From a virus (lineage: Duplodnaviria; Heunggongvirae; Uroviricota; Caudoviricetes): a stretch of DNA of 10,932 nt. The notes under the pieces are model-generated. The model was not told the DNA's origin. It did not search any database and saw nothing but the letters and a program-made list of their open reading frames with translations. Position numbers and translations under genes: made by a program. Shown piece after piece: positions 1 to 10,932 of the stretch. Numbering within the stretch: position 1 is the first letter of the stretch; the number at the start of each line of letters is the position of its first letter. The stretch lies in the IMG/VR virus record IMGVR_UViG_2671180814_000008; one strand, written 5' to 3'.

Positions 1-366
1 CAATGCGGCCTTTTGTGATTCGGCCTGTTGTTGCTGTTCGTCAGCCGTATAAATCCGTTTAACCACAGCTCCGTCCTTAAACATCCACTTACCGGAATCA
101 TCAGCACGACGATTAGCTGTAATATCAGGAACCTCAACGACGCTATAACCTTCAGGGTTAAGCGTGGAGGCATCTTTGGTGATGGCGACAATAATATTAT
201 TTGCATCGTAAACAATCTTTATTGTGTCTGGCTGAAAGTTCTTCACTTCCTCATACCAGTTTTTTCCGTCCTCAGAGTAAAGCCAGATGACTCCGTGCTT
301 CTTTGTTAACTCATACTGCTCCACTGTTTTAGCATTACCTGCTTTTATGTTCTTTAAGTGCATCAT
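1..366 (-). CDS. tfa: Tail fibre assembly protein (Tfa chaperone family), N-terminal part; 3' end runs off the window start
   Basis: Minus-strand translation from ATG at 366-364 reads [57 protein letters not shown] with no stop before position 1. Clearly paralogous to the complete tfa at 1630-2163 ([42 protein letters not shown]). Start lies 1 nt after the TAA of the upstream tail-fibre cassette (TAA-T-ATG). Missing from the ORF track because it has no in-window stop. Confidence 0.8.
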
Positions 367-367
367 A

Positions 368-1396
368 TTAAATACTCGCCACATTATACCAAGTGCCATT
401 TATATACTTTTGCACTGGCCTGTAATGAACGCCTGCAATATTATCGGCAGAGTTTTTTCCGGTATCCTGTACGTTAATCCCCGTCAGTACATAGCCTGAC
501 GGGCACTGAAAATTCCATGTTTGCCAGTTGTTCACTCCATAATATTGCTGTGAACCAAGTCGAACATCTTTCACATATCTGGAATCAAAATTGCCATAGT
601 TGCCGGGAATAACTTGCGAGCCGCAAAGCCAGTTCCCGTTATTATCCATGTACGCCTGACCATCGGTGCCATTGGCTGTCCTTGAGTTATTAATCATGTA
701 GATGCCAAATTGCTTATTTCCCAGACCGCCAATCATAAATTTGCGGTCGGCATGGTCCTGACGGAGCAAAGCCTGAGCACCATCAGTGGATACCGCATTA
801 CGTCCCAAAATAACATTCTGGTCACGCATATGAATCCACATGCCGGTACTACTGTTAATTGCAAAACGGTTTGCAAATATATCCCCTGTAACATCAAGAC
901 CATGCCCCATGCTTATCCGGCCAGTTCTGAGATTAAGCGTAAAGGGGCGTAGTGGCCCTATATTACCATTTTCCCCTTCATTCTCTCGTGTAGGGATGAT
1001 ATGCAGGCATTCTTCAGAACGACGAAAAATGGCACCAAAAGATGAATTAAATATCCTCAGTGCATTGACTGTCGATATTTTCACTTCACTGCTGAAAAGG
1101 GCTTCAACAAGAACAGACAAAGCATTCCATTTAAGATTCATCAGGTCTTTAGGCCGGGTGCCAATGATGCGGTGTCTCCATTTGAAATATTCATTGCCGT
1201 TGTTGCCTGTTTCAAACCACATGTAGGAATCGGTGTCTGCATCCGAATTATTTTTAAACCCAATCTTTGCCCAGTCAGTATTTCGAATCCAGGCAAGGAT
1301 TGAGTCGTTTTCAAAAGTAAGTCCACCGGACAACGTATCGCCATTTTTTTGCACGGCGTTACCAGCCTTGTTTACCGTTTCCTGTAAACCGAGGTT
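368..1396 (-). CDS. Phage tail fibre C-terminal variable (receptor-binding) cassette 1, silent: no own N-terminal constant part or RBS
   Basis: ORF track gives 368-1354 from a GTG. The same frame stays open upstream to 1396 and is closed only by a TAA inside the crossover site (1397-1399). Reads [12 protein letters not shown]..., the junction peptide expected of a Mu S-type fibre crossing a gix site. Glycine/asparagine-rich fibre-like composition; C-terminal motifs [15 protein letters not shown] and INGTWYNV are shared with cassette 2. Followed immediately by a tfa gene. Confidence 0.7.
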
Positions 1397-1404
1397 TTAG
1401 ATAA
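1379..1404. other. gix/hix-like 26-bp invertase crossover site, copy 1 (TTCCTGTAAACCGAGGTTTTAGATAA)
   Basis: Two 12-bp imperfect inverted half-sites around a central GA. One mismatch from the phage Mu gixL sequence as I recall it (TTCCTGTAAACCGAGGTTTTGGATAA). Sits exactly at the 5' end of tail-fibre cassette 1. Confidence 0.7.
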
Positions 1405-1576
1405 TGGCCGTTTCCGGCCTGCATGGCATGATTTGCGCTTTTGGACGGGAGATTCAGCGTGCTGATTGGCTATGTAAGGGTATCAACAAATGACCAGAAT
1501 ACAGACCTGCAACGAAACGCTCTTGTTTGTGCAGGATGTGAACAAATATTTGAAGATAAATTAAGCGGAACAAGGA
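1385..1576 (+). repeat. About 190-bp direct repeat, copy 1 (crossover site right part + invertase leader + first ~39 invertase codons)
   Basis: 1385-1568 matches 3081-3264 with 2 mismatches (1409 C vs G, 1415 C vs T) by manual alignment. Copy 1 continues the invertase reading frame (LSGTR) to about 1576 before diverging. Confidence 0.85.
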
Positions 1577-1608
1577 NGAATGGCCACAAAAGCCTGAATA
1601 AAAATTAA
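1459..1608 (+). pseudogene. Truncated serine DNA invertase N-terminal fragment (about 39 invertase codons then unrelated tail, stop at 1606-1608)
   Basis: GTG at 1459 preceded by GGGAG. Encodes [39 protein letters not shown], identical to the start of the invertase at 3155, then X-NGHKSLNKN-stop. Contains the ambiguous base at 1577. Confidence 0.55.
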
Positions 1609-1626
1609 GGCCCGATAGCGGGCCTT
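1597..1626 (-). terminator. Putative rho-independent terminator downstream of tfa (1630-2163)
   Basis: Perfect 8-bp stem AAGGCCCG (1607-1614) / CGGGCCTT (1619-1626) with 4-nt loop. On the minus strand it is followed by AATTTTTATT, starting 3 nt after the tfa stop codon. Confidence 0.5.
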
Positions 1627-1629
1627 CTC

Positions 1630-2163
1630 TCATTCTGGTTGTTCGGGAAACGTTACTGGCAGGCTGGAGGTGTCTGTGGATTCAACCTTCTGCGCATAGA
1701 GCATCCACTCGGTTAATTTTTGTTTATTCTCATCGGAAATGATGCCCAGCTGTAGCTGAGAGTCCCACAGCTGGGTTTTATCCCTGACGAGCTGCAGCAG
1801 GCTCTGCTTTTCATTTTCCGCTTGTTGCCTTTGCTCTTCCTCGGTATAAGTTCGCTTTATCACCGCACCATCTTTGAACATCCAGTTGCCCGAAATATCA
1901 GCCCGGCGATTTGCTGTAATATCAGGCAACTCAACGACACTTAAACCTTCTGGATTAATTGCTGATACATCCTTGTCTATAGCAATAATTATTCCCTCAA
2001 CTGTGTAAGCCAGTTTTATTGTATCCTCCTGAAAGTTTTTTAATTCCTCATGCCAATTTTTTCCATCTTCGGACCATAACCAGATAACATCAAAATTCTT
2101 TGTTAGCTGGTATTGTTCAACGGTTTTTGGATTACCTGCGACAATGTTTTTTAAATGCTGCAT
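1630..2163 (-). CDS. tfa: Tail fibre assembly protein (Tfa chaperone family), complete, 177 aa
   Basis: ORF-track protein [37 protein letters not shown]...[28 protein letters not shown]. The C-terminal W..Y..V.....S.P...P pattern is typical of Caudovirales tail-fibre chaperones. ATG at 2163 lies 2 nt after the TAA ending the cassette 2 reading frame. Confidence 0.85.
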
Positions 2164-2165
2164 GA

Positions 2166-2315
2166 TTATACCTGCGATACGTTATACCATGTTCCGTTAA
2201 TTAACTTTTGTATTGGTCTGAATACTGCCGGATCATCACCATCGACTTCACCGATAATACCAAGCCCCGTGATTACATGGCCTGATTTTTCATACATCAC
2301 GCCTTTCTTCATGGT
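2166..2315 (-). pseudogene. Detached C-terminal 49 codons of tail fibre cassette 2, downstream of an in-frame amber stop
   Basis: Same frame as 2316-3092. After TAG (2318-2316) the frame reads [52 protein letters not shown], which aligns with the C-terminus of cassette 1 (..[21 protein letters not shown]). Confidence 0.45.
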
Positions 2316-3092
2316 CTAAACAACTCGTGTGCCAAGTCTGACATCTCTCACATAGCGGGAATCAAAGTTACCGTAATCCGAGGGATTAACACGTCCCGTA
2401 ATATTTATGGTTTTATTACTTTGAATGCTTCCGGAGACAAAGCGCATAACATGGACGTTATTAGCATAAACATCCAGATTACCATCGCCTTTTTGTTTAA
2501 AGCCCGTGTCATTATCACCCAATACAATCGAATTACCGCCAAGAGCACTGGATGTTCCGATACCCAGTGCACCATTCAGTTGACCACCAGATAACGGCAG
2601 TGCACCAACATCTCCTGCTGAAGGTTTTCTGGTGGTGTAAAATTCGGACCAGTCGGCTTCAAAACCATAACCATCACGGGCTGAACGATAAAAAATACCG
2701 CCATTTTTATAATTAATCCGAAACTGAGCTGCAGGACAACTTCCTTCTCCCATATAAAAATGAATAATTAACGTTGATGCACCACTAATAGTTGCGTTAT
2801 AGGCTCCGCTACTCCAGTTCCATCCAACTGCTTTATCATTCGCAACGGTGCTTCCTGTTTTCCCTAAGGCAAACGCACCAACATGACTTGCTTTTAATGT
2901 GATATCGGAGGAACCATCAAAAGCCACATTGCTTATTTTCCTGGCAGTTTTTAATTTTGCAGCTGTAGAAGCATTGCCGGATAGTTCACCAGAAAGGCCA
3001 CCGCTGAATGTTTGTCGATTAGTCCAGGTATTCGCTGTACTGAGTAACGGTATTTTCTCCCCGCTTGTGCCGAGTTCTCGTAAACCGAGGTT
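2316..3092 (-). CDS. Phage tail fibre C-terminal variable cassette 2, silent; truncated by an in-frame TAG
   Basis: ORF track 2316-2927 (GTG start). The frame is open upstream to 3092 and is closed by a TAA inside the crossover site (3093-3095). Reads NLGLRELGTSGEKIPLLSTANTWTNRQTFSGG...NVAFDGSSDITL..., ending ..[23 protein letters not shown]. Confidence 0.7.
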   Translation of the reverse strand, partial: NLGLRELGTSGEKIPLLSTANTWTNRQTFSGGLSGELSGNASTAAKLKTARKISNVAFDGSSDITLKASHVGAFALGKTGSTVANDKAVGWNWSSGAYNATISGASTLIIHFYMGEGSCPAAQFRINYKNGGIFYRSARDGYGFEADWSEFYTTRKPSAGDVGALPLSGGQLNGALGIGTSSALGGNSIVLGDNDTGFKQKGDGNLDVYANNVHVMRFVSGSIQSNKTINITGRVNPSDYGNFDSRYVRDVRLGTRVV

Positions 3093-3100
3093 TTAGATAA
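3075..3100. other. gix/hix-like 26-bp invertase crossover site, copy 2 (TTCTCGTAAACCGAGGTTTTAGATAA), adjacent to the invertase gene
   Basis: Same architecture as copy 1. The cassette-proximal half differs (TTCTCG vs TTCCTG); the invertase-proximal half is identical. Lies 55 bp upstream of the invertase start. Confidence 0.75.
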
Positions 3101-3264
3101 TGGCGGTTTCTGGCCTGCATGGCATGATTTGCGCTTTTGGACGGGAGATTCAGCGTGCTGATTGGCTATGTAAGGGTATCAACAAATGACCAGAATACAG
3201 ACCTGCAACGAAACGCTCTTGTTTGTGCAGGATGTGAACAAATATTTGAAGATAAATTAAGCGG
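3081..3264 (+). repeat. About 190-bp direct repeat, copy 2 (ends at the assembly gap)
   Basis: Near-identical to 1385-1568. The run of N begins at 3265, exactly where the sequenced part of this copy stops. Confidence 0.85.
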
Positions 3265-3873
3265 NNNNNNNNNNNNNNNNNNNNNNNNNNNNNNNNNNNN
3301 NNNNNNNNNNNNNNNNNNNNNNNNNNNNNNNNNNNNNNNNNNNNNNNNNNNNNNNNNNNNNNNNNNNNNNNNNNNNNNNNNNNNNNNNNNNNNNNNNNNN
3401 NNNNNNNNNNNNNNNNNNNNNNNNNNNNNNNNNNNNNNNNNNNAAAAGGTGACACGCTGGTTGTCTGGAAACTGGATCGCCTCGGGCGAAGCATGAAACA
3501 TCTGATTTCTCTCGTCGGGGAACTACGGGAGCGAGGAATTAATTTTCGCAGTCTGACCGACAGCATAGATACATCTTCTCCAATGGGGCGTTTTTTCTTC
3601 CACGTGATGGGTGCCCTGGCTGAAATGGAACGTGAATTAATTGTTGAACGTACACTGGCCGGACTGGCGGCAGCACGCGCACGGGGGCGCACAGGCGGAC
3701 GTCGACCGAAGCTGACAAAAGAACAGCATGAGCAAATAGCAAGGCTGATCAAAAACGGGCACGACAGAAAACAACTGGCAATAATTTACGGCATTGGTAT
3801 ATCGACGATTTATCGTTACCACCCCGCAGGAGAATCAATCGGAACAATAGAGAAGAGTCAGGAAACAAAATAA
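3155..3873 (+). CDS. Site-specific serine DNA invertase (Gin/Pin/Hin/Cin family), interrupted by an assembly gap
   Basis: GTG at 3155 with GGGAG 7 nt upstream. N-terminus [37 protein letters not shown] contains the family's catalytic-serine motif (YVRVS). After the gap: [70 protein letters not shown]...[19 protein letters not shown], including a Hin-like C-terminal helix-turn-helix; stop TAA 3871-3873. The gap falls where about 10-15 codons are expected to be missing. Confidence 0.9.
3265..3443. other. Assembly gap (179 N)
   Basis: Run of N in the sequence, inside the invertase coding region. Confidence 1.
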
Positions 3874-3900
3874 CCGCTAATCTGACCATTAGCGGTTTTT
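3874..3900. terminator. Bidirectional rho-independent terminator between convergent invertase and gpU-like genes
   Basis: Perfect 8-bp stem CCGCTAAT (3874-3881) / ATTAGCGG (3888-3895) with loop CTGACC, followed by TTTTT on the plus strand and by a T-rich run (TTATTTTGTTT) on the minus strand. Lies between the invertase stop (3873) and the gpU stop (3909). Confidence 0.55.
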
Positions 3901-3908
3901 GTGTTAAA

Positions 3909-4403
3909 TCAGAACAACCCTTTAACTGAACTGGCCGCGCTGTTAAGGGATGATGTTACCTTATCTTTGAAGCCGGACAGCATATCGCTGAACGATGAGG
4001 ATTGCAGGCGCTCCCGCAAATCCTCATCACAGCGTTCAAGAGTCAGTGAAAATTCTATCTTTTTCGCCTTACCGTAGCGATCAAACTCGGAGCGGGTCGT
4101 ATTCGTTTCGGTCAGGACATACATGCCGTAAATCTGCCCGACGCCATCAATCAGAGGCCAGGGTCGTCCTGTATACGCCTGCGTGGTCAGCAGCGACAGC
4201 GACACTTCGCCACCTGTAATTTCAGGATAAAGCACACCAGAAAGAACGATGCGCTCATCACCTGCACCGATATACTGCCAGCTTGCCGAACGGTTAACGC
4301 GTTCATTTTTCACATGCCGCCAGCTTTTGTTTTGCTGTAACTGCTGATGCGGCAATGTACGCAGCTCAAAAACAAACATGCCGTAGATCATCATCATGGC
4401 CAT
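3909..4403 (-). CDS. U: P2 gpU-like tail protein, 164 aa
   Basis: ORF-track protein MAMMMIYGMFVFELRTLPHQQLQQNKSWRH...VLYPEITGG. Immediately downstream of the tape-measure gene, as in P2-type tail operons. ATG at 4403 follows the T stop (4410-4412) with GAGGAG overlapping that stop. Confidence 0.75.
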   Translation of the reverse strand: MAMMMIYGMFVFELRTLPHQQLQQNKSWRHVKNERVNRSASWQYIGAGDERIVLSGVLYPEITGGEVSLSLLTTQAYTGRPWPLIDGVGQIYGMYVLTETNTTRSEFDRYGKAKKIEFSLTLERCDEDLRERLQSSSFSDMLSGFKDKVTSSLNSAASSVKGLF

Positions 4404-4409
4404 GACTCC

Positions 4410-7253
4410 TCAATCTTTATCGTAAAAACTGCCACGCCCGGCACGGGCGCGCCGTTCCATTTCTGCCCTGACCATTTCACCGACCAGTTTCGCCAGTTCG
4501 CGGGGATTCTGCGTAACAACGTTATGCAGATGAACATGAATTTCACCACCAAATCCGGAGGCAACAGGCTCCCGGTTACGGGAAGTTACAGGAACTGATG
4601 CCACTGGAGAGCGTATGGCCTCCGCCACCGGGCGGGAGCTGGCCGCAACAACAGGGACCAGCGCCGGAGGCAGCGGAGCCGGGACCACGGGTGTGATATT
4701 AATTGCGGGGGCAGGCTTACTGACCTGCGCAATCTTCCGCTCCTGCCACTCCCCACGAACAGCAAGTGCGCGGGGCAGGTTCTTAAAGACAATATCGCCG
4801 GGGCCAATGCGTTTTTTCGTCTCATCAACCAGCTTACCTGTGTTATCAGCAATTTTGCTGAGTCTGCGTAGCGTCCCGGTATTGCTGTCTGTGAGCGGTT
4901 TGTTGTCTTTGGGTTTATCACCTCCGGTGCCATTGCCATTTTCCACAGGCTTCGGCGGATTGATTTTCGCCAGGTCCCCCTGAAGCAAGGCAACCTTGTC
5001 CTGAAGAATGGCCGCACGCTGTGCGTCTTCGATTTTCTTGCGCGCCCTTTCCGCTTCATCCGGAAGGACGCCAAGTTTTTCAAGTATCCACGCCAGCGTA
5101 TCCAGTAGCATTTTTGCAGGTGTCAGAACAAGTTGTAACGCACCGCCAAGAACGTTACCGAATATCTCGCCAGCACTGGCACATTTATCCAGCGTTTCCT
5201 TGCTGGACTCCATCGGTGACAGCAGCGATTTAAACCAGTTAAAGACCTGAATAATCCCATCGCGCACGACATCAAAAACAGGGCCAAACCGTTCAAAGGT
5301 TTCGCGCAACGGGGTCAGCCTTTCCATAATCCCGCTGAACACCCCGGCAAAAAATGCCCTGATGGGATCCCAGTATTTCCAGATAAGAACGGCAGCTCCG
5401 GCAAGCGCAGCCACGATAAGACTAACCGGACTGAACAGCGCCCCGATAGCGCCACCAAGTAAAGAAACGGAACCCGTCACCATTCCCCATAATGCAGGCA
5501 GAACCCTGACAACATTCATTGATTCGGTCAGGAGAGAAAAACCGAGACGCAACGTAGCCAGCTTCCCGTGAAGCACCCCAATAACCAGAGACAACGAACC
5601 AACCGTTGCTGTTGTCGCCAGCAGTGCGCCTCCCGCTATCAGTAACTGGCGCGTCAGTGCCGGGTGGGCCTGCGCCAGCGCCGTCACCTTTGAGACAACC
5701 CGCGTGAGCCACTGCGTGACAGAACGCAGCGGACCGTCAACCAGATCACTGATGCGAATACGCAGACCTTCCCATGCACTGCCGAGTGATTTCAGGTTGC
5801 CATCAAGGTTATTGGCCATAACCTTTGCCGTGCGTTCTGCCTCACCGCGCGCGCCTTCAAGTTCTTTTCTCAGTTTGGCTAAGAAGCCGTCACCTGCCGC
5901 ATCAACGAGGCCCATAAATGATGTGAAAGCCTCTTCTCCGGCAATGTCCTTAAAGAACGATACCCGGTCAACCTCCCCGTATTTGCGGGTGGCTTTATAG
6001 AGATCGGCCAGCACATTCTCCATCGGGCGCATTTTGCCTTTGGCGTCAGCAACTGACACCCCCAGCTCTTTCAGTGCTTCTGCCGCTGCCTTTGGCGGTG
6101 ATGACAGATTGGCCAGGCTTTTACGCAACGCTGTACCTGCATCACTCCCCCTGATACCCATCTTCGCCAGCACGCCCGCCATCGCTGCGGCCTGCTCCAG
6201 CGATATTCCCAGCTTACCCGCCACCGGACCTGCATATTTCATGGTTTCGCCCAGTGCGCGAAGGTCAGTGTTGGTACGGGTAAACGCTGCGGTAAGTGTG
6301 TCACCGACCCGGTCCATCTGGTCAGCAGAGAGGCCGAACTGCGTCAGGATATTGGAACCAATATCCGCCGTCTCGCCGAGGTCCATACCGCCAGCCGTTG
6401 CCATGCTCAGCACGCCGGGAAGCGCAGCCTGAATGGCCTGCGGTGTGAAACCAGCCATTGCAAGAAATGCCTGTCCACTGGCGGCATCGCCTGCGGTGAA
6501 CTGCGTTTCAGAGCCAAGTTTTAACGCCTGCTCACGCAGCGCCTTAAACTGCGGGCTGTTTTTATCGATTCGCGTCAGTGCCTGAACACGGGACATCTCT
6601 TTCCCGAACCCGATAGCGGGCTGCAAAAAACGCCCGGCAGCATAGCCGCCCGCTGCCGCCGCACCTGTTGCCAGCGCACCACCTGTTTTCAGTTTTCCCG
6701 CTGTTTCCTGCGCGCGTGAATACCGCTCACGCGCCTGCGTTACACGCGCAAGCGCCCGCCGTTCGCGTTCAAGCTGGTTGTTGTATTGTCCGGTGCGTCT
6801 GATGGCCTGCTGGATGGTGTTATCGCTGCCTGTCAGGGAAATGCCGTGGCGTTTCAGCTCTCCGCCAAGTTCCCGCATTTTCTGAATTTCCCGTGTGCGC
6901 GATTCATTCAGGCGTTCAAGCCGGGTGCTTAACTGCTGCATCAGCTTTTGTTGTTTTTCGCTGAGCACTGTACCCGTGCGTTGTAACTGATTAAGGGCGT
7001 TAAGCTGGCGTCGTGCTTTCACGATGCCCGCATCCGCTTTACTGACAGCGTCACGGGCGCGCTCAAATGAACGCGCCTGACGCTCGAGATTTTTGATCGC
7101 CCCCTGCGTTCGCTGGATGGAGTCACCAAACTGCCCCATCAGGCGGCGGGCGTTTTCGGCAGGCCGGGTCAGCCTGTCAACGGCGCTGAAAGCGACCCGG
7201 ATATCAAGAGTCTTCATTGTCTGCATTCCCGCTGCGAAGTGCCGCCCGCTCAC
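4410..7253 (-). CDS. T: Phage tail tape measure protein (P2 gpT-like)
   Basis: 947-aa ORF. N-terminal half is rich in coiled-coil-like Q/R/E/L repeats, followed by long hydrophobic/glycine-rich segments (..LLIAGGALLATTATVGSLSLVIGVL..) and a proline-rich C-terminal region. Sits between E/E' and U. True start may be an internal ATG (7226 or 7217, MQTMKTL / MKTLDIRVAF) rather than 7253. Confidence 0.85.
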   Translation of the reverse strand: MSGRHFAAGMQTMKTLDIRVAFSAVDRLTRPAENARRLMGQFGDSIQRTQGAIKNLERQARSFERARDAVSKADAGIVKARRQLNALNQLQRTGTVLSEKQQKLMQQLSTRLERLNESRTREIQKMRELGGELKRHGISLTGSDNTIQQAIRRTGQYNNQLERERRALARVTQARERYSRAQETAGKLKTGGALATGAAAAGGYAAGRFLQPAIGFGKEMSRVQALTRIDKNSPQFKALREQALKLGSETQFTAGDAASGQAFLAMAGFTPQAIQAALPGVLSMATAGGMDLGETADIGSNILTQFGLSADQMDRVGDTLTAAFTRTNTDLRALGETMKYAGPVAGKLGISLEQAAAMAGVLAKMGIRGSDAGTALRKSLANLSSPPKAAAEALKELGVSVADAKGKMRPMENVLADLYKATRKYGEVDRVSFFKDIAGEEAFTSFMGLVDAAGDGFLAKLRKELEGARGEAERTAKVMANNLDGNLKSLGSAWEGLRIRISDLVDGPLRSVTQWLTRVVSKVTALAQAHPALTRQLLIAGGALLATTATVGSLSLVIGVLHGKLATLRLGFSLLTESMNVVRVLPALWGMVTGSVSLLGGAIGALFSPVSLIVAALAGAAVLIWKYWDPIRAFFAGVFSGIMERLTPLRETFERFGPVFDVVRDGIIQVFNWFKSLLSPMESSKETLDKCASAGEIFGNVLGGALQLVLTPAKMLLDTLAWILEKLGVLPDEAERARKKIEDAQRAAILQDKVALLQGDLAKINPPKPVENGNGTGGDKPKDNKPLTDSNTGTLRRLSKIADNTGKLVDETKKRIGPGDIVFKNLPRALAVRGEWQERKIAQVSKPAPAINITPVVPAPLPPALVPVVAASSRPVAEAIRSPVASVPVTSRNREPVASGFGGEIHVHLHNVVTQNPRELAKLVGEMVRAEMERRARAGRGSFYDKD

Positions 7254-7733
7254 GCCAGCTAACCACTTCGCCGGGCGTCATCATGAAGATTTCGGCGGGC
7301 GACCAGTTAAAAATGGCGGCAATATCCGCCACAAAGTCTTCTATGTGCTCAAAGCACACAACCGTGATCAGGCTTCCGTCGCCTGTTCGTTCTTCTCGCC
7401 AGAGTCCGCACCGCTCAAAAAATTTACGGCAACCACACATAACTGAATAAAGTCACGGGATGCCATTTTTTTGATCGTCACTTCATCCAGTCGCGGTGAT
7501 GTCACGCGTGACAGCAGCGTAAACATGGATTCCGCTTTCAAATTCAGCACATCAGACAGCGACAAATCTCGCAGAGATCCAGCCTGCTCAATAGCCCCGG
7601 TGATCTCCACATACGTGATTTTTTCGCCGCCTCGCTCAATTGGTTGGGTAAGTTTTACGCCACGCTCACTGGTTTCTTTCACAGTGTCAGCAACGACCGT
7701 GTTTTCGGTATCGATGTTTTTCGTCTCTTTCAT
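7204..7733 (-). CDS. E': Tail assembly chaperone E+E' fusion (P2 gpE' analogue), made by a -1 ribosomal frameshift at 7416-7422
   Basis: The E frame reads ..VVAVNFL..; the -1 frame after TTTTTTG continues FERCGLWREERTGDGSLITVVCFEHIEDF...MMTPGEVVSWRERAALRSGNADNEDS and stops at 7204-7206, overlapping the start of T. This matches the conserved E/E' (lambda G/GT-like) arrangement upstream of tape-measure genes. Confidence 0.6.
7368..7733 (-). CDS. E: Tail assembly chaperone (P2 gpE-like), 121 aa
   Basis: ORF-track protein MKETKNIDTENTVVADTVKE...; ATG at 7733 preceded by AAGGAG with a 7-nt spacer. Lies between the tube and tape-measure genes. Confidence 0.8.
   Translation of the reverse strand: MKETKNIDTENTVVADTVKETSERGVKLTQPIERGGEKITYVEITGAIEQAGSLRDLSLSDVLNLKAESMFTLLSRVTSPRLDEVTIKKMASRDFIQLCVVAVNFLSGADSGEKNEQATEA
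7416..7422 (-). other. Slippery heptamer T-TTT-TTG for the -1 programmed frameshift (E to E')
   Basis: Plus strand CAAAAAA at 7416-7422 is minus-strand TTTTTTG, in the E frame as AAT-TTT-TTG, 15 codons before the E stop. The -1 frame downstream is open for 72 codons. Confidence 0.6.
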
Positions 7734-7787
7734 CAGGAAACTCCTTTCAGTCAGAGGCGACGCACTGCGCCGCCTGCATATTACTTA

Positions 7788-8300
7788 TCAGCCAAGCCCG
7801 AGCGCGGAACGGATGCGATCGGGCACAATGTCCCTGCCGTCCTTCCGGTAAATGAAGTTCAGCAGGTCAATCTCCCACAACGGGCGATCGTTAACACTCA
7901 GCTTGTAGTAGGTGTTTTTAATGGCGTAAGTGTGTGATGTGGCTTCGCCCTGTTTGGCTTCCCCCATATCAATTTCCGTCACACGTCCGCGCATTTCGAC
8001 TTCATACAGGTCGCTTTCAGCGTCGGTGTAGTATTCACCCGCAAAACGCAGCAGCGTACCGTCAATCGTGCCGCCATACTTAAGGAACAGCTCACGAACT
8101 GCGCCCCCCATGACAAAGCTCGCATCAAGCGCGGAGTCATCCAGGCCGAGATCAATACTTACCGCTCCCATCATGCCACCACCCCGGTAGCTGTCGGTTT
8201 TGCGCGTCAGCTTAGGCAGAGTGACGGACGTCACCTTACCCACTTCGTTTTCACCATCCACAAACAGCGTAAAAAAGCGAAGATGTTTTGGTACAGCCAT
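7788..8300 (-). CDS. FII: Phage tail tube protein (P2 FII-like), 170 aa
   Basis: ORF-track protein MAVPKHLRFFTLFVDGENEVGKVTSVTLPKLTRKTDSYRGGGM..., recognised as P2 FII-type. Its ATG overlaps the sheath stop by 1 nt (ATGA); GGGAGG lies 7 nt upstream. Confidence 0.9.
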   Translation of the reverse strand: MAVPKHLRFFTLFVDGENEVGKVTSVTLPKLTRKTDSYRGGGMMGAVSIDLGLDDSALDASFVMGGAVRELFLKYGGTIDGTLLRFAGEYYTDAESDLYEVEMRGRVTEIDMGEAKQGEATSHTYAIKNTYYKLSVNDRPLWEIDLLNFIYRKDGRDIVPDRIRSALGLG

Positions 8301-9484
8301 CAGGCACCTCCCAGCACCGCAAATGCGGGACCAAAGAATTCATCAGTAAACGACTGGTAAAGCTCCATGTCTTCCAGCGGGGGAACAGGCGTATATTTGT
8401 AGCGAATACGCACGCGCCCCTGACGTAAATTCGTGGTGCCGTTATCCACCACGTCATACCAGCACGACGCCCCAATCAGTTTCCCGGCAGTAACCAGTGA
8501 ATCCAGTTTTGCCCTGATGGCACCGATAACATCCTTCACGTTCGCAGGCGTCAGTGGACTGTCGATGGTTTCAAACTGCGCTTCCGCAATTGAATCAGCC
8601 AGCACCTGTGCGGTTCGGGTATACACCTCAAAGATGTAGGCGTTCGTTTCCGGTGTGCGGTTGCCCCAGAAGCGGAACCCGTTGCGACGAATAATGGTCG
8701 TGATTTCTTTGTTGTTGAGGCTGTTGGCATCACTGTCTTCGGCCTGCAACGACCAGAACACATGCCTGGACATCCCCAGCACATTTTTAACCGGAACGTT
8801 GGACAGCGATTTGTGCCAGCCCTGCTCATGGTCAATGTACGCACGAAGGCCGCACGCATAGGCAGGCGCGGGGAACGTTTCGTTTTTGCCACTTTTCGGG
8901 TTGTAGGCGATGAAGTCCGGCCATAAGAGCATCACCTCACGTTCGTTGAATTTCTGGCGGTAGGTAATTGCCTCAGCCATCGTGTTACAGTCATGACATG
9001 AGGCATACACAAACGCGCGCAGTTTACCCGCAATCACGCACAGGGATTTTGTCACCGCCTCCGTGTCCAGCTCCGGCGCGGCCAGAATACGCGGACGGTA
9101 TCCGATGCTTTCATCCTGCTCTGCAACAAGCAGCGCATACATCCCCGTATAGCTGCCGTCAGATTCAGAACCACCGATAACCAGTTGATCCTGCGTTTTT
9201 CCGTCTTCTTCTTTGTGTTCAGCCACGCGAACGACGATCACCTTTGTGCTCACCTGGTCTGCGATGGCCTTAAGCGCACGATAAAGCGTCCCCGTTGTTC
9301 CGCATTTTCCCAGCACGTCATTGACGCGGGGCAGCAGTGTGGGCTTGTTCAGCGGGAACAGCTCCGCGTCCGCATCATCCGCCGTTGCCACGATACCGAT
9401 AACGCTGGAATCAACATCGTTAATCGCTGTTACCAGGTCGGTATTTTCCGTAACACGGGCACCATGAAAACGAGTTTCACTCAT
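8300..9484 (-). CDS. FI: Phage contractile tail sheath protein (P2 FI-like), 394 aa
   Basis: ORF-track protein MSETRFHGARVTEN...FPLNKP...WPDF...EQGWHKSLSNV...GFRFWGNRT...YTPVPPLE, recognised as P2 FI-type sheath. AAGGGG lies 8 nt upstream of ATG 9484. Confidence 0.9.
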   Translation of the reverse strand: MSETRFHGARVTENTDLVTAINDVDSSVIGIVATADDADAELFPLNKPTLLPRVNDVLGKCGTTGTLYRALKAIADQVSTKVIVVRVAEHKEEDGKTQDQLVIGGSESDGSYTGMYALLVAEQDESIGYRPRILAAPELDTEAVTKSLCVIAGKLRAFVYASCHDCNTMAEAITYRQKFNEREVMLLWPDFIAYNPKSGKNETFPAPAYACGLRAYIDHEQGWHKSLSNVPVKNVLGMSRHVFWSLQAEDSDANSLNNKEITTIIRRNGFRFWGNRTPETNAYIFEVYTRTAQVLADSIAEAQFETIDSPLTPANVKDVIGAIRAKLDSLVTAGKLIGASCWYDVVDNGTTNLRQGRVRIRYKYTPVPPLEDMELYQSFTDEFFGPAFAVLGGA

Positions 9485-9641
9485 AGCTTCAACCCCTTGT
9501 ATCCGTTAAATGATTCGGCAACAATCATCACCCACCACGCGCGTAATCTCACCCCTGCGCCATTCTCCCGCCACGGCGACAACAAAAAGCAGTAACCCCC
9601 TCCGCACGCACATGCGACCATGCCACACAGGGAGGGAGCAG
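9485..9641. promoter_or_regulatory. Divergent intergenic region, presumed to hold promoters for the sheath operon (leftward) and the gpD-like gene (rightward)
   Basis: 157 bp non-coding between divergent starts at 9484 and 9642. No clear promoter motif identified. Confidence 0.3.
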
Positions 9642-10751
9642 ATGACCGACACCACCATGCAATTGCTCAGTCAGGGCACAGACCCCGTGAAAATGCCGGA
9701 TTTTGATATTCTCGCGGAGGGTAAAACGCTGTCAGGCGTGGCAGAGCGCCTGATGAGCCTGTCACTGACCGACAACCGGGGATTTGAGGCGGACCAGCTC
9801 ACCATCACGCTGGATGATGCGGATGGTCAGTTGCAGCTACCGCCACGGGGCGCGCGCCTGACGGTTCTCATTGGCTGGAAGGGAGAACCGCTGACAGAAA
9901 AAGGCACTTACATTGTTGATGAAATCGCTCACGAAGGACCGCCGGACAGGCTGACTGTTTCAGCCAGAAGCGCAGATTTTCGGGCTGAATTTAACGTTAA
10001 ACGTGAGGTGTCCTGGCATGATGTGACCGTTGAGCGTGTGGTATCCGCCATCGCTCATCGGTATGGTCTGAAACCGCAAATCAGCGAAATGCTGATGGAT
10101 ATCGAAATCGACCACGCCGACCAGACCGAAGAAAGCGACATGTCCTTCCTTACGCGCATGGCGGAAATGCTGGGCGCAATCACCACGGTAAAAAGCGGTA
10201 ATCTGTTATTCATCATGCCCGGTGGTGGCGTGAACGCACAGGGCCAGCCGTTGCCCTCGTTCGCCATCACACGCAGCAGCGGCGATCGCCATCAGTTCCG
10301 CATTGCTGACCGCGAAGCGTATACGGGGGTACGCGCTTACTGGCTTGATCTTAATTACGGGAAAAAGAAAAAAGTCAGCGTGAAACGCCGCAAACCGTCA
10401 AAACCAAAAAAGGAGAAAAGCAGCAGCCGGGAAGGCGACTATATGGAAGGTGCGGAAGGCAACGTGTTTGTGTTACGCAAAACTTATCAGAACGAGCAGG
10501 CAGCAAGACGTGCAGCGGCGGCAAAGTGGCAGCAGCTACAACGCGGAGCCGCATCATTCTCCATCACACTGGCGCATGGACGTGCAGAACTCTACCCCGA
10601 AATGCATGGCACGGTAACAGGATTTAAAAGCGAGATTGATAATCAGGACTGGATTATTGCAAAAGCCGAGCACACCATTGATAACAGCGGCTTTACCACG
10701 CAGCTTGAGCTTGAGGCAAAAATCCCGGAATGGATAGCAGAAACAGAGTGA
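9642..10751 (+). CDS. D: P2 gpD-like tail protein (phage late control D / Phage_GPD family), about 370 aa
   Basis: The ORF-track frame is open from 9510, but ATG 9642 is preferred because GGAGGGAG sits 3 nt upstream. Protein MTDTTMQLLSQGT...LSLTDNRGFEADQLTITLDDADGQLQLPPRGARLTVLIGWKG... with a central lysine-rich linker (KKKKVSVKRRKPSKPKKEK), as in gpD-type proteins. Confidence 0.75.
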   Translation: MTDTTMQLLSQGTDPVKMPDFDILAEGKTLSGVAERLMSLSLTDNRGFEADQLTITLDDADGQLQLPPRGARLTVLIGWKGEPLTEKGTYIVDEIAHEGPPDRLTVSARSADFRAEFNVKREVSWHDVTVERVVSAIAHRYGLKPQISEMLMDIEIDHADQTEESDMSFLTRMAEMLGAITTVKSGNLLFIMPGGGVNAQGQPLPSFAITRSSGDRHQFRIADREAYTGVRAYWLDLNYGKKKKVSVKRRKPSKPKKEKSSSREGDYMEGAEGNVFVLRKTYQNEQAARRAAAAKWQQLQRGAASFSITLAHGRAELYPEMHGTVTGFKSEIDNQDWIIAKAEHTIDNSGFTTQLELEAKIPEWIAETE

Positions 10752-10932
10752 GCAACTTAAATGTATTAACTCAGAACGGATCAACACACTCACAACATAG
10801 AGTCAATATAGCTGCTCGCTTTGTTCCAGCAAGGATGCCTATTTCTAAGGAAAAACAGAGCAGAAACATATGGTGTTTTCCTACCTGACATCAGGGGTGG
10901 TAGACTGGCCCCCTGAATCTCCAGACAACCAG

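Follow-up and report, generated by a model that had tools for sequence, protein, structure and literature searches.

A Gin-type tail-fibre switch of a known kind in a P2-like prophage, shown with a two-cassette layout that is most likely an assembly artefact

The window, which is the whole stretch of 10,932 nucleotides analysed here, is interrupted by N characters at two places, a single n at position 1577 and a run of 179 N at 3265–3443. These divide it into contig A (1–1576), contig B (1578–3264) and contig C (3444–10,932). Contig A begins with the 5' 122 codons of tfa1, a Mu U-like tail-fibre assembly gene (1–366, minus strand; Pfam Caudo_TAP, E 3.3e-14), the 3' third of which lies beyond the left window end. 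It is followed by cassette 1 (Hc1; 368–1396, minus strand), a silent C-terminal tail-fibre part homologous to the variable part of Mu S, by a gix site on the plus strand (1379–1404; TTCCTGTAAACCGAGGTTTTAGATAA), and by the true 5' end of the invertase gene gin (1459–1576, plus strand), which comprises codons 1–39 with the catalytic Ser9 and a predicted enhancer region at approximately 1477–1544. Contig B opens with the last 24 nt of a tfa gene, namely seven codons and the stop (1578–1601, plus strand), and continues with a terminator hairpin (1607–1626), tfa2 (1630–2163, minus strand), cassette 2 (Hc2; 2166–3092, minus strand) with an in-frame amber codon TAG at 2316–2318, a second gix-like site on the plus strand (3075–3100; TTCTCGTAAACCGAGGTTTTAGATAA), and a second copy of the first 36 invertase codons (3155–3264, plus strand). 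Contig C starts within gin, with the last base of codon 53, codons 54–195 and the stop (3444–3873, plus strand). A bidirectional terminator hairpin (3872–3897) stands between gin and gpU, followed by the P2-type tail genes gpU, T, E/E', FII and FI (3909–9484, minus strand), gpD (9642–10,751, plus strand) and the end of a multicopy element (10,903–10,932). The opposite orientation of gpU to FI relative to D was considered as a possible rearrangement and rejected, since Xuanwuvirus phages and many E. coli prophages normally have their genes arranged this way. A tRNA scan for an attachment site at the right window end found none.

Both fibre cassettes are present in the window together with their own tfa genes, and the constant N-terminal fibre part was seen in siblings of the locus only. 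Cassette 1 was 66.8% identical over 343 amino acids to residues 169–503 of Mu S. Its assembly gene tfa1, which is common to 21 IMG/VR contigs, was 88.5% identical to Mu U and 100% identical to tfa1 of the sibling L041, and tfa2 matched Mu U'. A first interpretation made from the letters alone (the sequence-only reading) had proposed that a cassette frame begins inside the gix site. The predicted peptides are indeed there, as cassette 1 opens with NLGLQE (1396–1379, minus strand) and cassette 2 with NLGLRE (3092–3075, minus strand), and in each case an in-frame TAA within the gix site stands immediately before the frame. The cassettes were also held to be promoterless at their 5' ends, in agreement with which no promoter-like site positioned to drive cassette 1 or cassette 2 was found. 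As the junction of an expressed fibre, NLGLxE stands in part. Since the crossover involves the central two bases of the site, the N would come from the invertase-side half-site, outside the cassette, and only (L)GLQE would be carried by the cassette itself; the siblings read VIEYLGLQE. A constant fibre part that reads through an inverted site, which had been named as a feature to look for, could be identified in L041, where the constant fibre gene H (656 aa) contains ...VIEYLGLQE... at the gix site. The expressed cassette set of that sibling is related to Mu S' and U'.

Two 26-bp gix-like sites were detected in the window, compared with a chance expectation of 0 in 200 shuffles. The site at 1379–1404 differs from the Mu gix 26-mer at one position and is identical to the sites of the siblings L024, L041 and L001. 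The site at 3075–3100 lies upstream of the second invertase copy, 55 bp before the GTG at 3155. The sequence-only reading had placed it correctly and had counted one difference from Mu gix, while three mismatches were observed. The same site adjoins a dead invertase gene in L004, L006, L017 and L019. An inverted partner was sought throughout the window and none was found; both sites lie on the plus strand, in direct orientation and on different contigs. The partner that the earlier interpretation expected in the surrounding genome was found in the siblings instead. In L041, 7669–7694 (minus) pairs with 10,744–10,769 (plus), the latter inside H, and in L001, 7277–7302 (minus), inside H, pairs with 10,371–10,396 (plus); in both, the partner gix lies approximately 3.07 kb from the invertase-proximal site. 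By comparison with these siblings, the partner site and the constant fibre part of the switch in the window should sit beyond the left window end.

The domain analysis bore out the assignment of the invertase to the Gin family, with an N-terminal catalytic motif and a C-terminal helix-turn-helix. Residues 1–36 (3155–3262) matched Pfam Resolvase (PF00239), with the catalytic Ser9 in the motif YVRVSTNDQ. Residues 54–195 (3445–3870), which represent the remainder of the catalytic domain and the HTH_7 DNA-binding domain, matched Resolvase (E 4.7e-30) and HTH_7 (PF02796; E 7.5e-14). The C-terminal part further matched the Gin structures 3UJ3/4M6F (E ~1e-64) and the Hin DNA-binding domain 1HCR (E 1.1e-12). 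An intact 195-aa invertase ORF that agrees with the visible bases was found in the siblings L024, L041 and L035. The visible bases of gin in the window are identical to the 195-aa gene of L024 (426/426 nt in the 3' part), apart from the last bases of contig A considered below. The sibling protein was 86% identical to Mu Gin over 181 aa. In the full-length alignment, which had been suggested as a check and which upheld family membership, the identity was 81% to Gin, 77% to e14 PinE and 73% to P7 Cin, and S9 and the core of the catalytic domain were invariant among the four proteins. A substitution of the catalytic serine hidden in the gap had been raised as a possibility; the Ser9 codon is, however, visible in both invertase copies, at 3179–3181 and 1483–1485. 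The first 118 nt of gin (1459–1576) were identical to Mu gin at 118/118 positions and the contig B copy at 110/110, and the last third of gin showed only ~50–58% nucleotide identity to Mu gin. By this identity, the 5' end of gin would contain the recombinational enhancer with its Fis sites; in the P7 record, the enhancer is annotated at nt 19–86 of cin. Such conservation makes the 5' end of gin a stretch that would act as an assembly-breaking repeat.

The single invertase gene that had been described at 3155–3873 is not continuous. Its codons 37–53 fall in the run of 179 N, which is 131 nt too long and breaks the frame between the two halves. In L024, the sequences that flank the run are joined by 48 nt (positions 5134–5181) as opposed to 179 N in the window. 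A length-preserving mask was rejected as an explanation of the run, given that 48 nt are replaced by 179 N and that the reading frame is lost across them; the run is a scaffold gap, in which 48 nt of gin are missing. A gin stretch that joins 1576 directly to approximately 3444 would be 40–48 nt long (GACAAAGACAGACCGACCGGGATTAAAACGCGCTTTAAAGCGCCTTCA). The n at 1577 is likewise a contig join and not sequence. The junction at this position was absent from 5,426 complete E. coli genomes, in which the matches stop exactly at 1576, and it was also absent from IMG/VR.

Siblings of the locus without contig B support the direct connection of contigs A and C. In L041 (GCA_013941735.1), window positions 1–1576 (99.8% identity) and 3444–10,899 (100%) form one continuous stretch. 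In L024, positions 1–1573 and 3444–10,932 are contiguous, with the same junction to the multicopy element at 10,902/10,903 as in the window. Contiguity in the source strain is inferred from these siblings. The scaffold of L024 itself has the same sort of single-n join between unrelated fragments. An alignment of the gix site and the invertase 5' end from many loci separated a "gin" type from a "pseudogene" type. The final base of contig B directly precedes the point of divergence between the two types (offset 190 of the alignment), and contig A runs 8 nt further. The end of gin in contig A is the same as in L024 up to offset 189, and its last 8 nt carry pseudogene-type bases (offsets 190 and 195). 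Contig B is of the pseudogene type at offsets 3, 4, 30 and 36 and of the gin type at offsets 57 and 159.

The origin of contig B was traced to another locus. Over its full length (1578–3264), contig B was identical at 1685 of 1687 positions (99.88%) to a lambdoid locus represented by L027–L034, and both mismatches are gin-type bases in the repeat that is shared with gin. In these matches, the locus is accompanied by trp genes, lambdoid tail genes and a 60-aa Resolvase fragment. A search for the exact tfa2 protein in complete genomes led to the same locus, adjoining trpA. Stop codons at positions 61 and 65 reduce its invertase to a pseudogene of 60 codons. Across genomes, cassette 2 is either fused to a constant Stf part (H93–H98) or silent beside an invertase (H99–H107), at the lambdoid locus. 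Inversion of the lambdoid segment, if it takes place at all, would require Gin in trans, as the invertase of the locus is dead. The site at 3075–3100, cassette 2 and the first 36 invertase codons are all on contig B and most likely do not belong to the P2-like prophage, from whose gin the last 142 codons would come. The two cassettes of the same orientation had been read as parts of one switch. In the complete genome CP032523.1, they are found in two prophages, as the lambdoid locus lies at 4.27 Mb, ~550 kb from a P2-like prophage (3.72 Mb) whose gpU is exactly that of the window.

These comparisons argue, with a probability of roughly 85%, that the window is a draft scaffold of three contigs covering the tail end of an E. 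coli-group, P2-like prophage (Peduoviridae, Xuanwuvirus type) with a switch of the Mu G-segment type, into which contig B was placed as a foreign piece from a second, lambdoid and trpA-adjacent prophage remnant. The apparent invertase unit at 3075–3873 is most likely a chimera in which the gix site and the 5' end come from the pseudogene locus and the 3' end, beyond a gap, from the real gin. The lambdoid-locus tfa is ~70% identical to tfa1 in nt 1–330 and 97–100% identical from nt 331, and the left ends of the window and of contig B both lie at the edges of this 97–100% stretch. The placement of contig B in the gin gap would be due to a near-exact repeat common to both loci at either side, i.e., the gix site with the invertase 5' end, and the tfa 3' end. 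Mate-pair support for contig B next to contig C may have been available to the scaffolder.

If the adjacency of contigs B and C were real, it could have arisen by homologous recombination within the ~150 nt common to gin and the lambdoid invertase pseudogene, with a rearranged chromosome and hybrid invertase genes as the result. Cassette 2 would then lie beside a hybrid functional invertase and a truncated hybrid copy beside cassette 1, and prophage invertase genes would serve as substrates for large genome rearrangement and for cassette exchange between unrelated phages. The allele types follow the pattern that is expected of hybrids, as contig A switches from the gin type to the pseudogene type at offsets 190 and 195, and contig B from the pseudogene type to the gin type. 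The switch points are different, however (36–57 versus 159–190), and are not what a single reciprocal crossover would leave; the ends of both contigs lie no more than 8 nt from the allele divergence, in the manner of assembly-graph breaks, and after the n, contig A continues with the left end of contig B and not with the remainder of the pseudogene. Moreover, siblings that are 100% identical over contig C keep an unrearranged gin, and two of them share the multicopy-element junction (L024 to 10,932 and L041 to 10,899). Such a rearrangement is considered very unlikely. Recombination at gix sites between the two prophages was also evaluated as the origin of the junction of contigs B and C and rejected, as the bases of contig B between the crossover dinucleotide and the invertase are still of the pseudogene type at offsets 30 and 36.

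The layout could also be taken as written, with one locus that holds two silent cassettes of the same orientation, each with its own gix site, a truncated invertase copy between them, and the invertase at 3155–3873 serving a multi-cassette switch. Apart from the order in the window itself, arrays of this general kind occur in close relatives, in which four to six Collar-domain cassettes lie beside a 199-aa invertase (L036, L039, L040 and L042), and a P2-like prophage of enteropathogenic E. coli (EPEC) has three inverted repeats and four variants (PMC4272514). The true arrays, however, have no invertase fragments between their cassettes. Both joins of the window are N characters, and at 1577 invertase codon 39 runs into the final seven codons of a tfa, a fusion found in 0 of 5,426 complete E. 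coli genomes. Furthermore, near-identical siblings lack the insert, and contig B matches another locus at 99.88%. A real two-cassette layout thus appears highly improbable. That contigs A and B are two orientation states of one segment in a mixed culture, which would be direct evidence of active inversion, is hardly credible: contig B starts with a tfa1-like 3' end convergent with tfa2, as a flipped segment would read, but the flank next to the invertase, which would stay in place during inversion, is not the same in the two copies (offsets 30 and 36), the partner tfa of the P2-like prophage is only 84–86% identical to tfa2, the tfa 3' end in contig B differs from that of tfa1, and contig B is 99.88% identical to a different locus.

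Under the favoured reading of a three-contig scaffold with a foreign contig B, the real gin would be composed of 1459–1576 and 3444–3873, and the order of the real switch would be the constant H part, the inverted gix, the expressed variable part with its tfa, the convergent tfa1 and cassette 1, the gix at 1379–1404, and gin. As in the Gin/Hin family, Gin dimers would bind the two inverted gix sites, and an enhancer bound by Fis in the first ~90 nt of gin would organise the synapse on supercoiled DNA. Ser9 would then make staggered cuts at the central dinucleotide, and rotation of the subunits would invert the segment of ~3.07 kb. Cassette 1 and tfa1 would thereby be joined in frame to the constant fibre part (...IEYLGLQE...) under the late promoter, and the exchange of the fibre may change the receptor specificity of the particle. 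Gin activity, Fis dependence and a change in host range are expected from homology to these systems. For P2-like prophages of EPEC, experiments have demonstrated inversion (PMC4272514).

The switch is of an already known kind, and its odd two-cassette layout is most likely an artefact of assembly. The invertible host-range switch proposed in the sequence-only reading therefore holds as a general kind, with an architecture as in Mu, P7 and many P2-like (Xuanwuvirus) prophages; the object at 3075–3873 to which it was attached is a probable scaffolding chimera. Tail-fibre switches of the Gin/Pin type have been in the textbooks since the 1980s, with Mu, P1, e14 and P2-like prophages as examples. 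Without contig B, the window would correspond to the right half of a standard tail region of a Xuanwuvirus-type prophage. In each of 353 complete E. coli genomes, at least 80% of the window is covered, and Xuanwuvirus phages and E. coli prophages are annotated with the same architecture (e.g., phage 503458 and E. coli TW10828). Hundreds of E. coli genomes already have near-identical copies in their annotation, and the biological import is small. The locus is informative in another respect: the gix site, the invertase 5' end with its enhancer and the tfa 3' ends recur as exact repeats among prophage invertase loci and break short-read assemblies, so that scaffolds can show fictitious multi-cassette layouts. 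The N characters at such junctions are best taken as joins.

Among the known systems, the Mu G segment (gin, gixL/gixR, S/U and S'/U') has the same 55 bp between the site and the GTG start, and the same cassette-borne junction peptide LGLQE. It differs from the present switch in that the host element here is P2-like and not Mu-like, with a P2 H-type fibre as the constant part, and in the junction itself, which reads VIEYLGLQE here compared to IQNLGLQE in Mu. In addition, the two half-sites of the partner site differ by 2 nt here, and a G-to-A change in the invertase-side half-site produces the TAA in the silent frame. The same invertible segments are present in Xuanwuvirus phages and prophages (Escherichia phage 503458, P884B11, 500465-2, and the P2-like prophages of EPEC E2348/69), in the same order of H, tfa, the convergent tfa' and H', the invertase, gpU-T-E-FII-FI on the opposite strand, and D. 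Identity of the invertase to its counterpart in phage 500465-2 reaches 99.5%, and with contig B removed no substantive difference could be seen, except that a multicopy element follows D here instead of the moron and ogr region. Contig B is of the same kind as the e14 P segment with pinE and the lambdoid pin loci (Rac-type remnant near trp), with an Stf-type cassette, a tfa gene, a gix-like site and a pin-type gene; the lambdoid locus that it matches differs from them in that its invertase is a pseudogene of 60 codons with in-frame stops. The C segment of P1/P7 (cin, cix) is a system of the same type, with 73% full-length identity of Cin (74.6% in the part aligned by tblastn); in P7, cin lies on the other side, cixL overlaps the 3' end of cin, and the sites differ.

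The same invertase pseudogene of a lambdoid prophage could be recognised in many genomes, including the comparison loci L004 (E. coli NCTC86; 3731-3910), L006, L017, L019, L021, and L028. The frame of this pseudogene is open through codon 60, after which come stops and unrelated sequence, the latter running out into a 3' fragment of a tail-fibre assembly gene (tfa). The gix-like site and the cassettes of the lambdoid locus are conserved despite the dead invertase. Cassette 2 carries an in-frame amber TAG at 2316-2318 (minus strand), 49 codons ahead of the cassette end, where E. coli NCTC86 has CAG. In the complete genomes L029 and L031 the cassette is called as a 203-aa plus 48-aa split, and L028 has the same base sequence as the window at this position. 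The amber codon is, on these grounds, a mutation of the lineage, and a read error is ruled out.

The assembly itself could be compared with that of L024, a near-identical IMG/VR sibling scaffold, which has its own single-n join at 3141, where an Stf-type constant-fibre fragment runs directly into the interior of a tfa gene; single-n joins therefore look like a habit of these draft assemblies. At the right end of the window, the final 30 nt (10903-10932) match a multicopy element that 4006 of the 5426 E. coli genomes carry, which we take to be the end of IS2. The element stands in the place of the PIN-domain moron and ogr region which follow gpD in the relatives, and probably explains why the scaffold stops at 10932. 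On the minus strand, upstream of the tape-measure gene, 7204-7733 holds two ORFs that overlap, one of 121 aa and one of 78 aa. The second of these belongs to the PF06528 gpE family in relatives, and the arrangement fits the E/E' frameshift tail-chaperone pair of P2.

An IS3-family element sits within the invertase-proximal gix site of two complete genomes, CP032523.1 (L035, 12440-12465) and CP029794.1 (L037, 11687-11712). The outer half-site is gone in both (TTCCTGTAAACCGAGGTTT|GAGGTGT), and the switch should therefore be frozen in these strains. Four prophages whose gpU is identical to that of the window (L036, L039, L040, and L042) each contain, at about 11190-14200, a set of 4-6 short cassettes with a Collar domain (PF07484), some facing one way and some the other, adjoining an invertase of 199 aa. 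Such sets are multiple-inversion arrays using different crossover sites; the gix pattern had no match in them at ≤4 mismatches.

Nucleotide comparison with Mu gin revealed the invertase gene as a sharp mosaic (1459-1576 and 3155-3264 versus 3445-3870), with 100% identity in its initial 118 nt, 87-98% from there to nt 360, and about 50-58% in the third that encodes the DNA-binding domain. Compared with Mu, the invertase-side half-site (1397-1402 and 3093-3098) has A in place of G, which gives TAA in the cassette frame. This frame reads I * N L G L around gix, and the silent frame is thus shut right at the site, whereas the frame through gix is open in Mu (IQNLGLQE).
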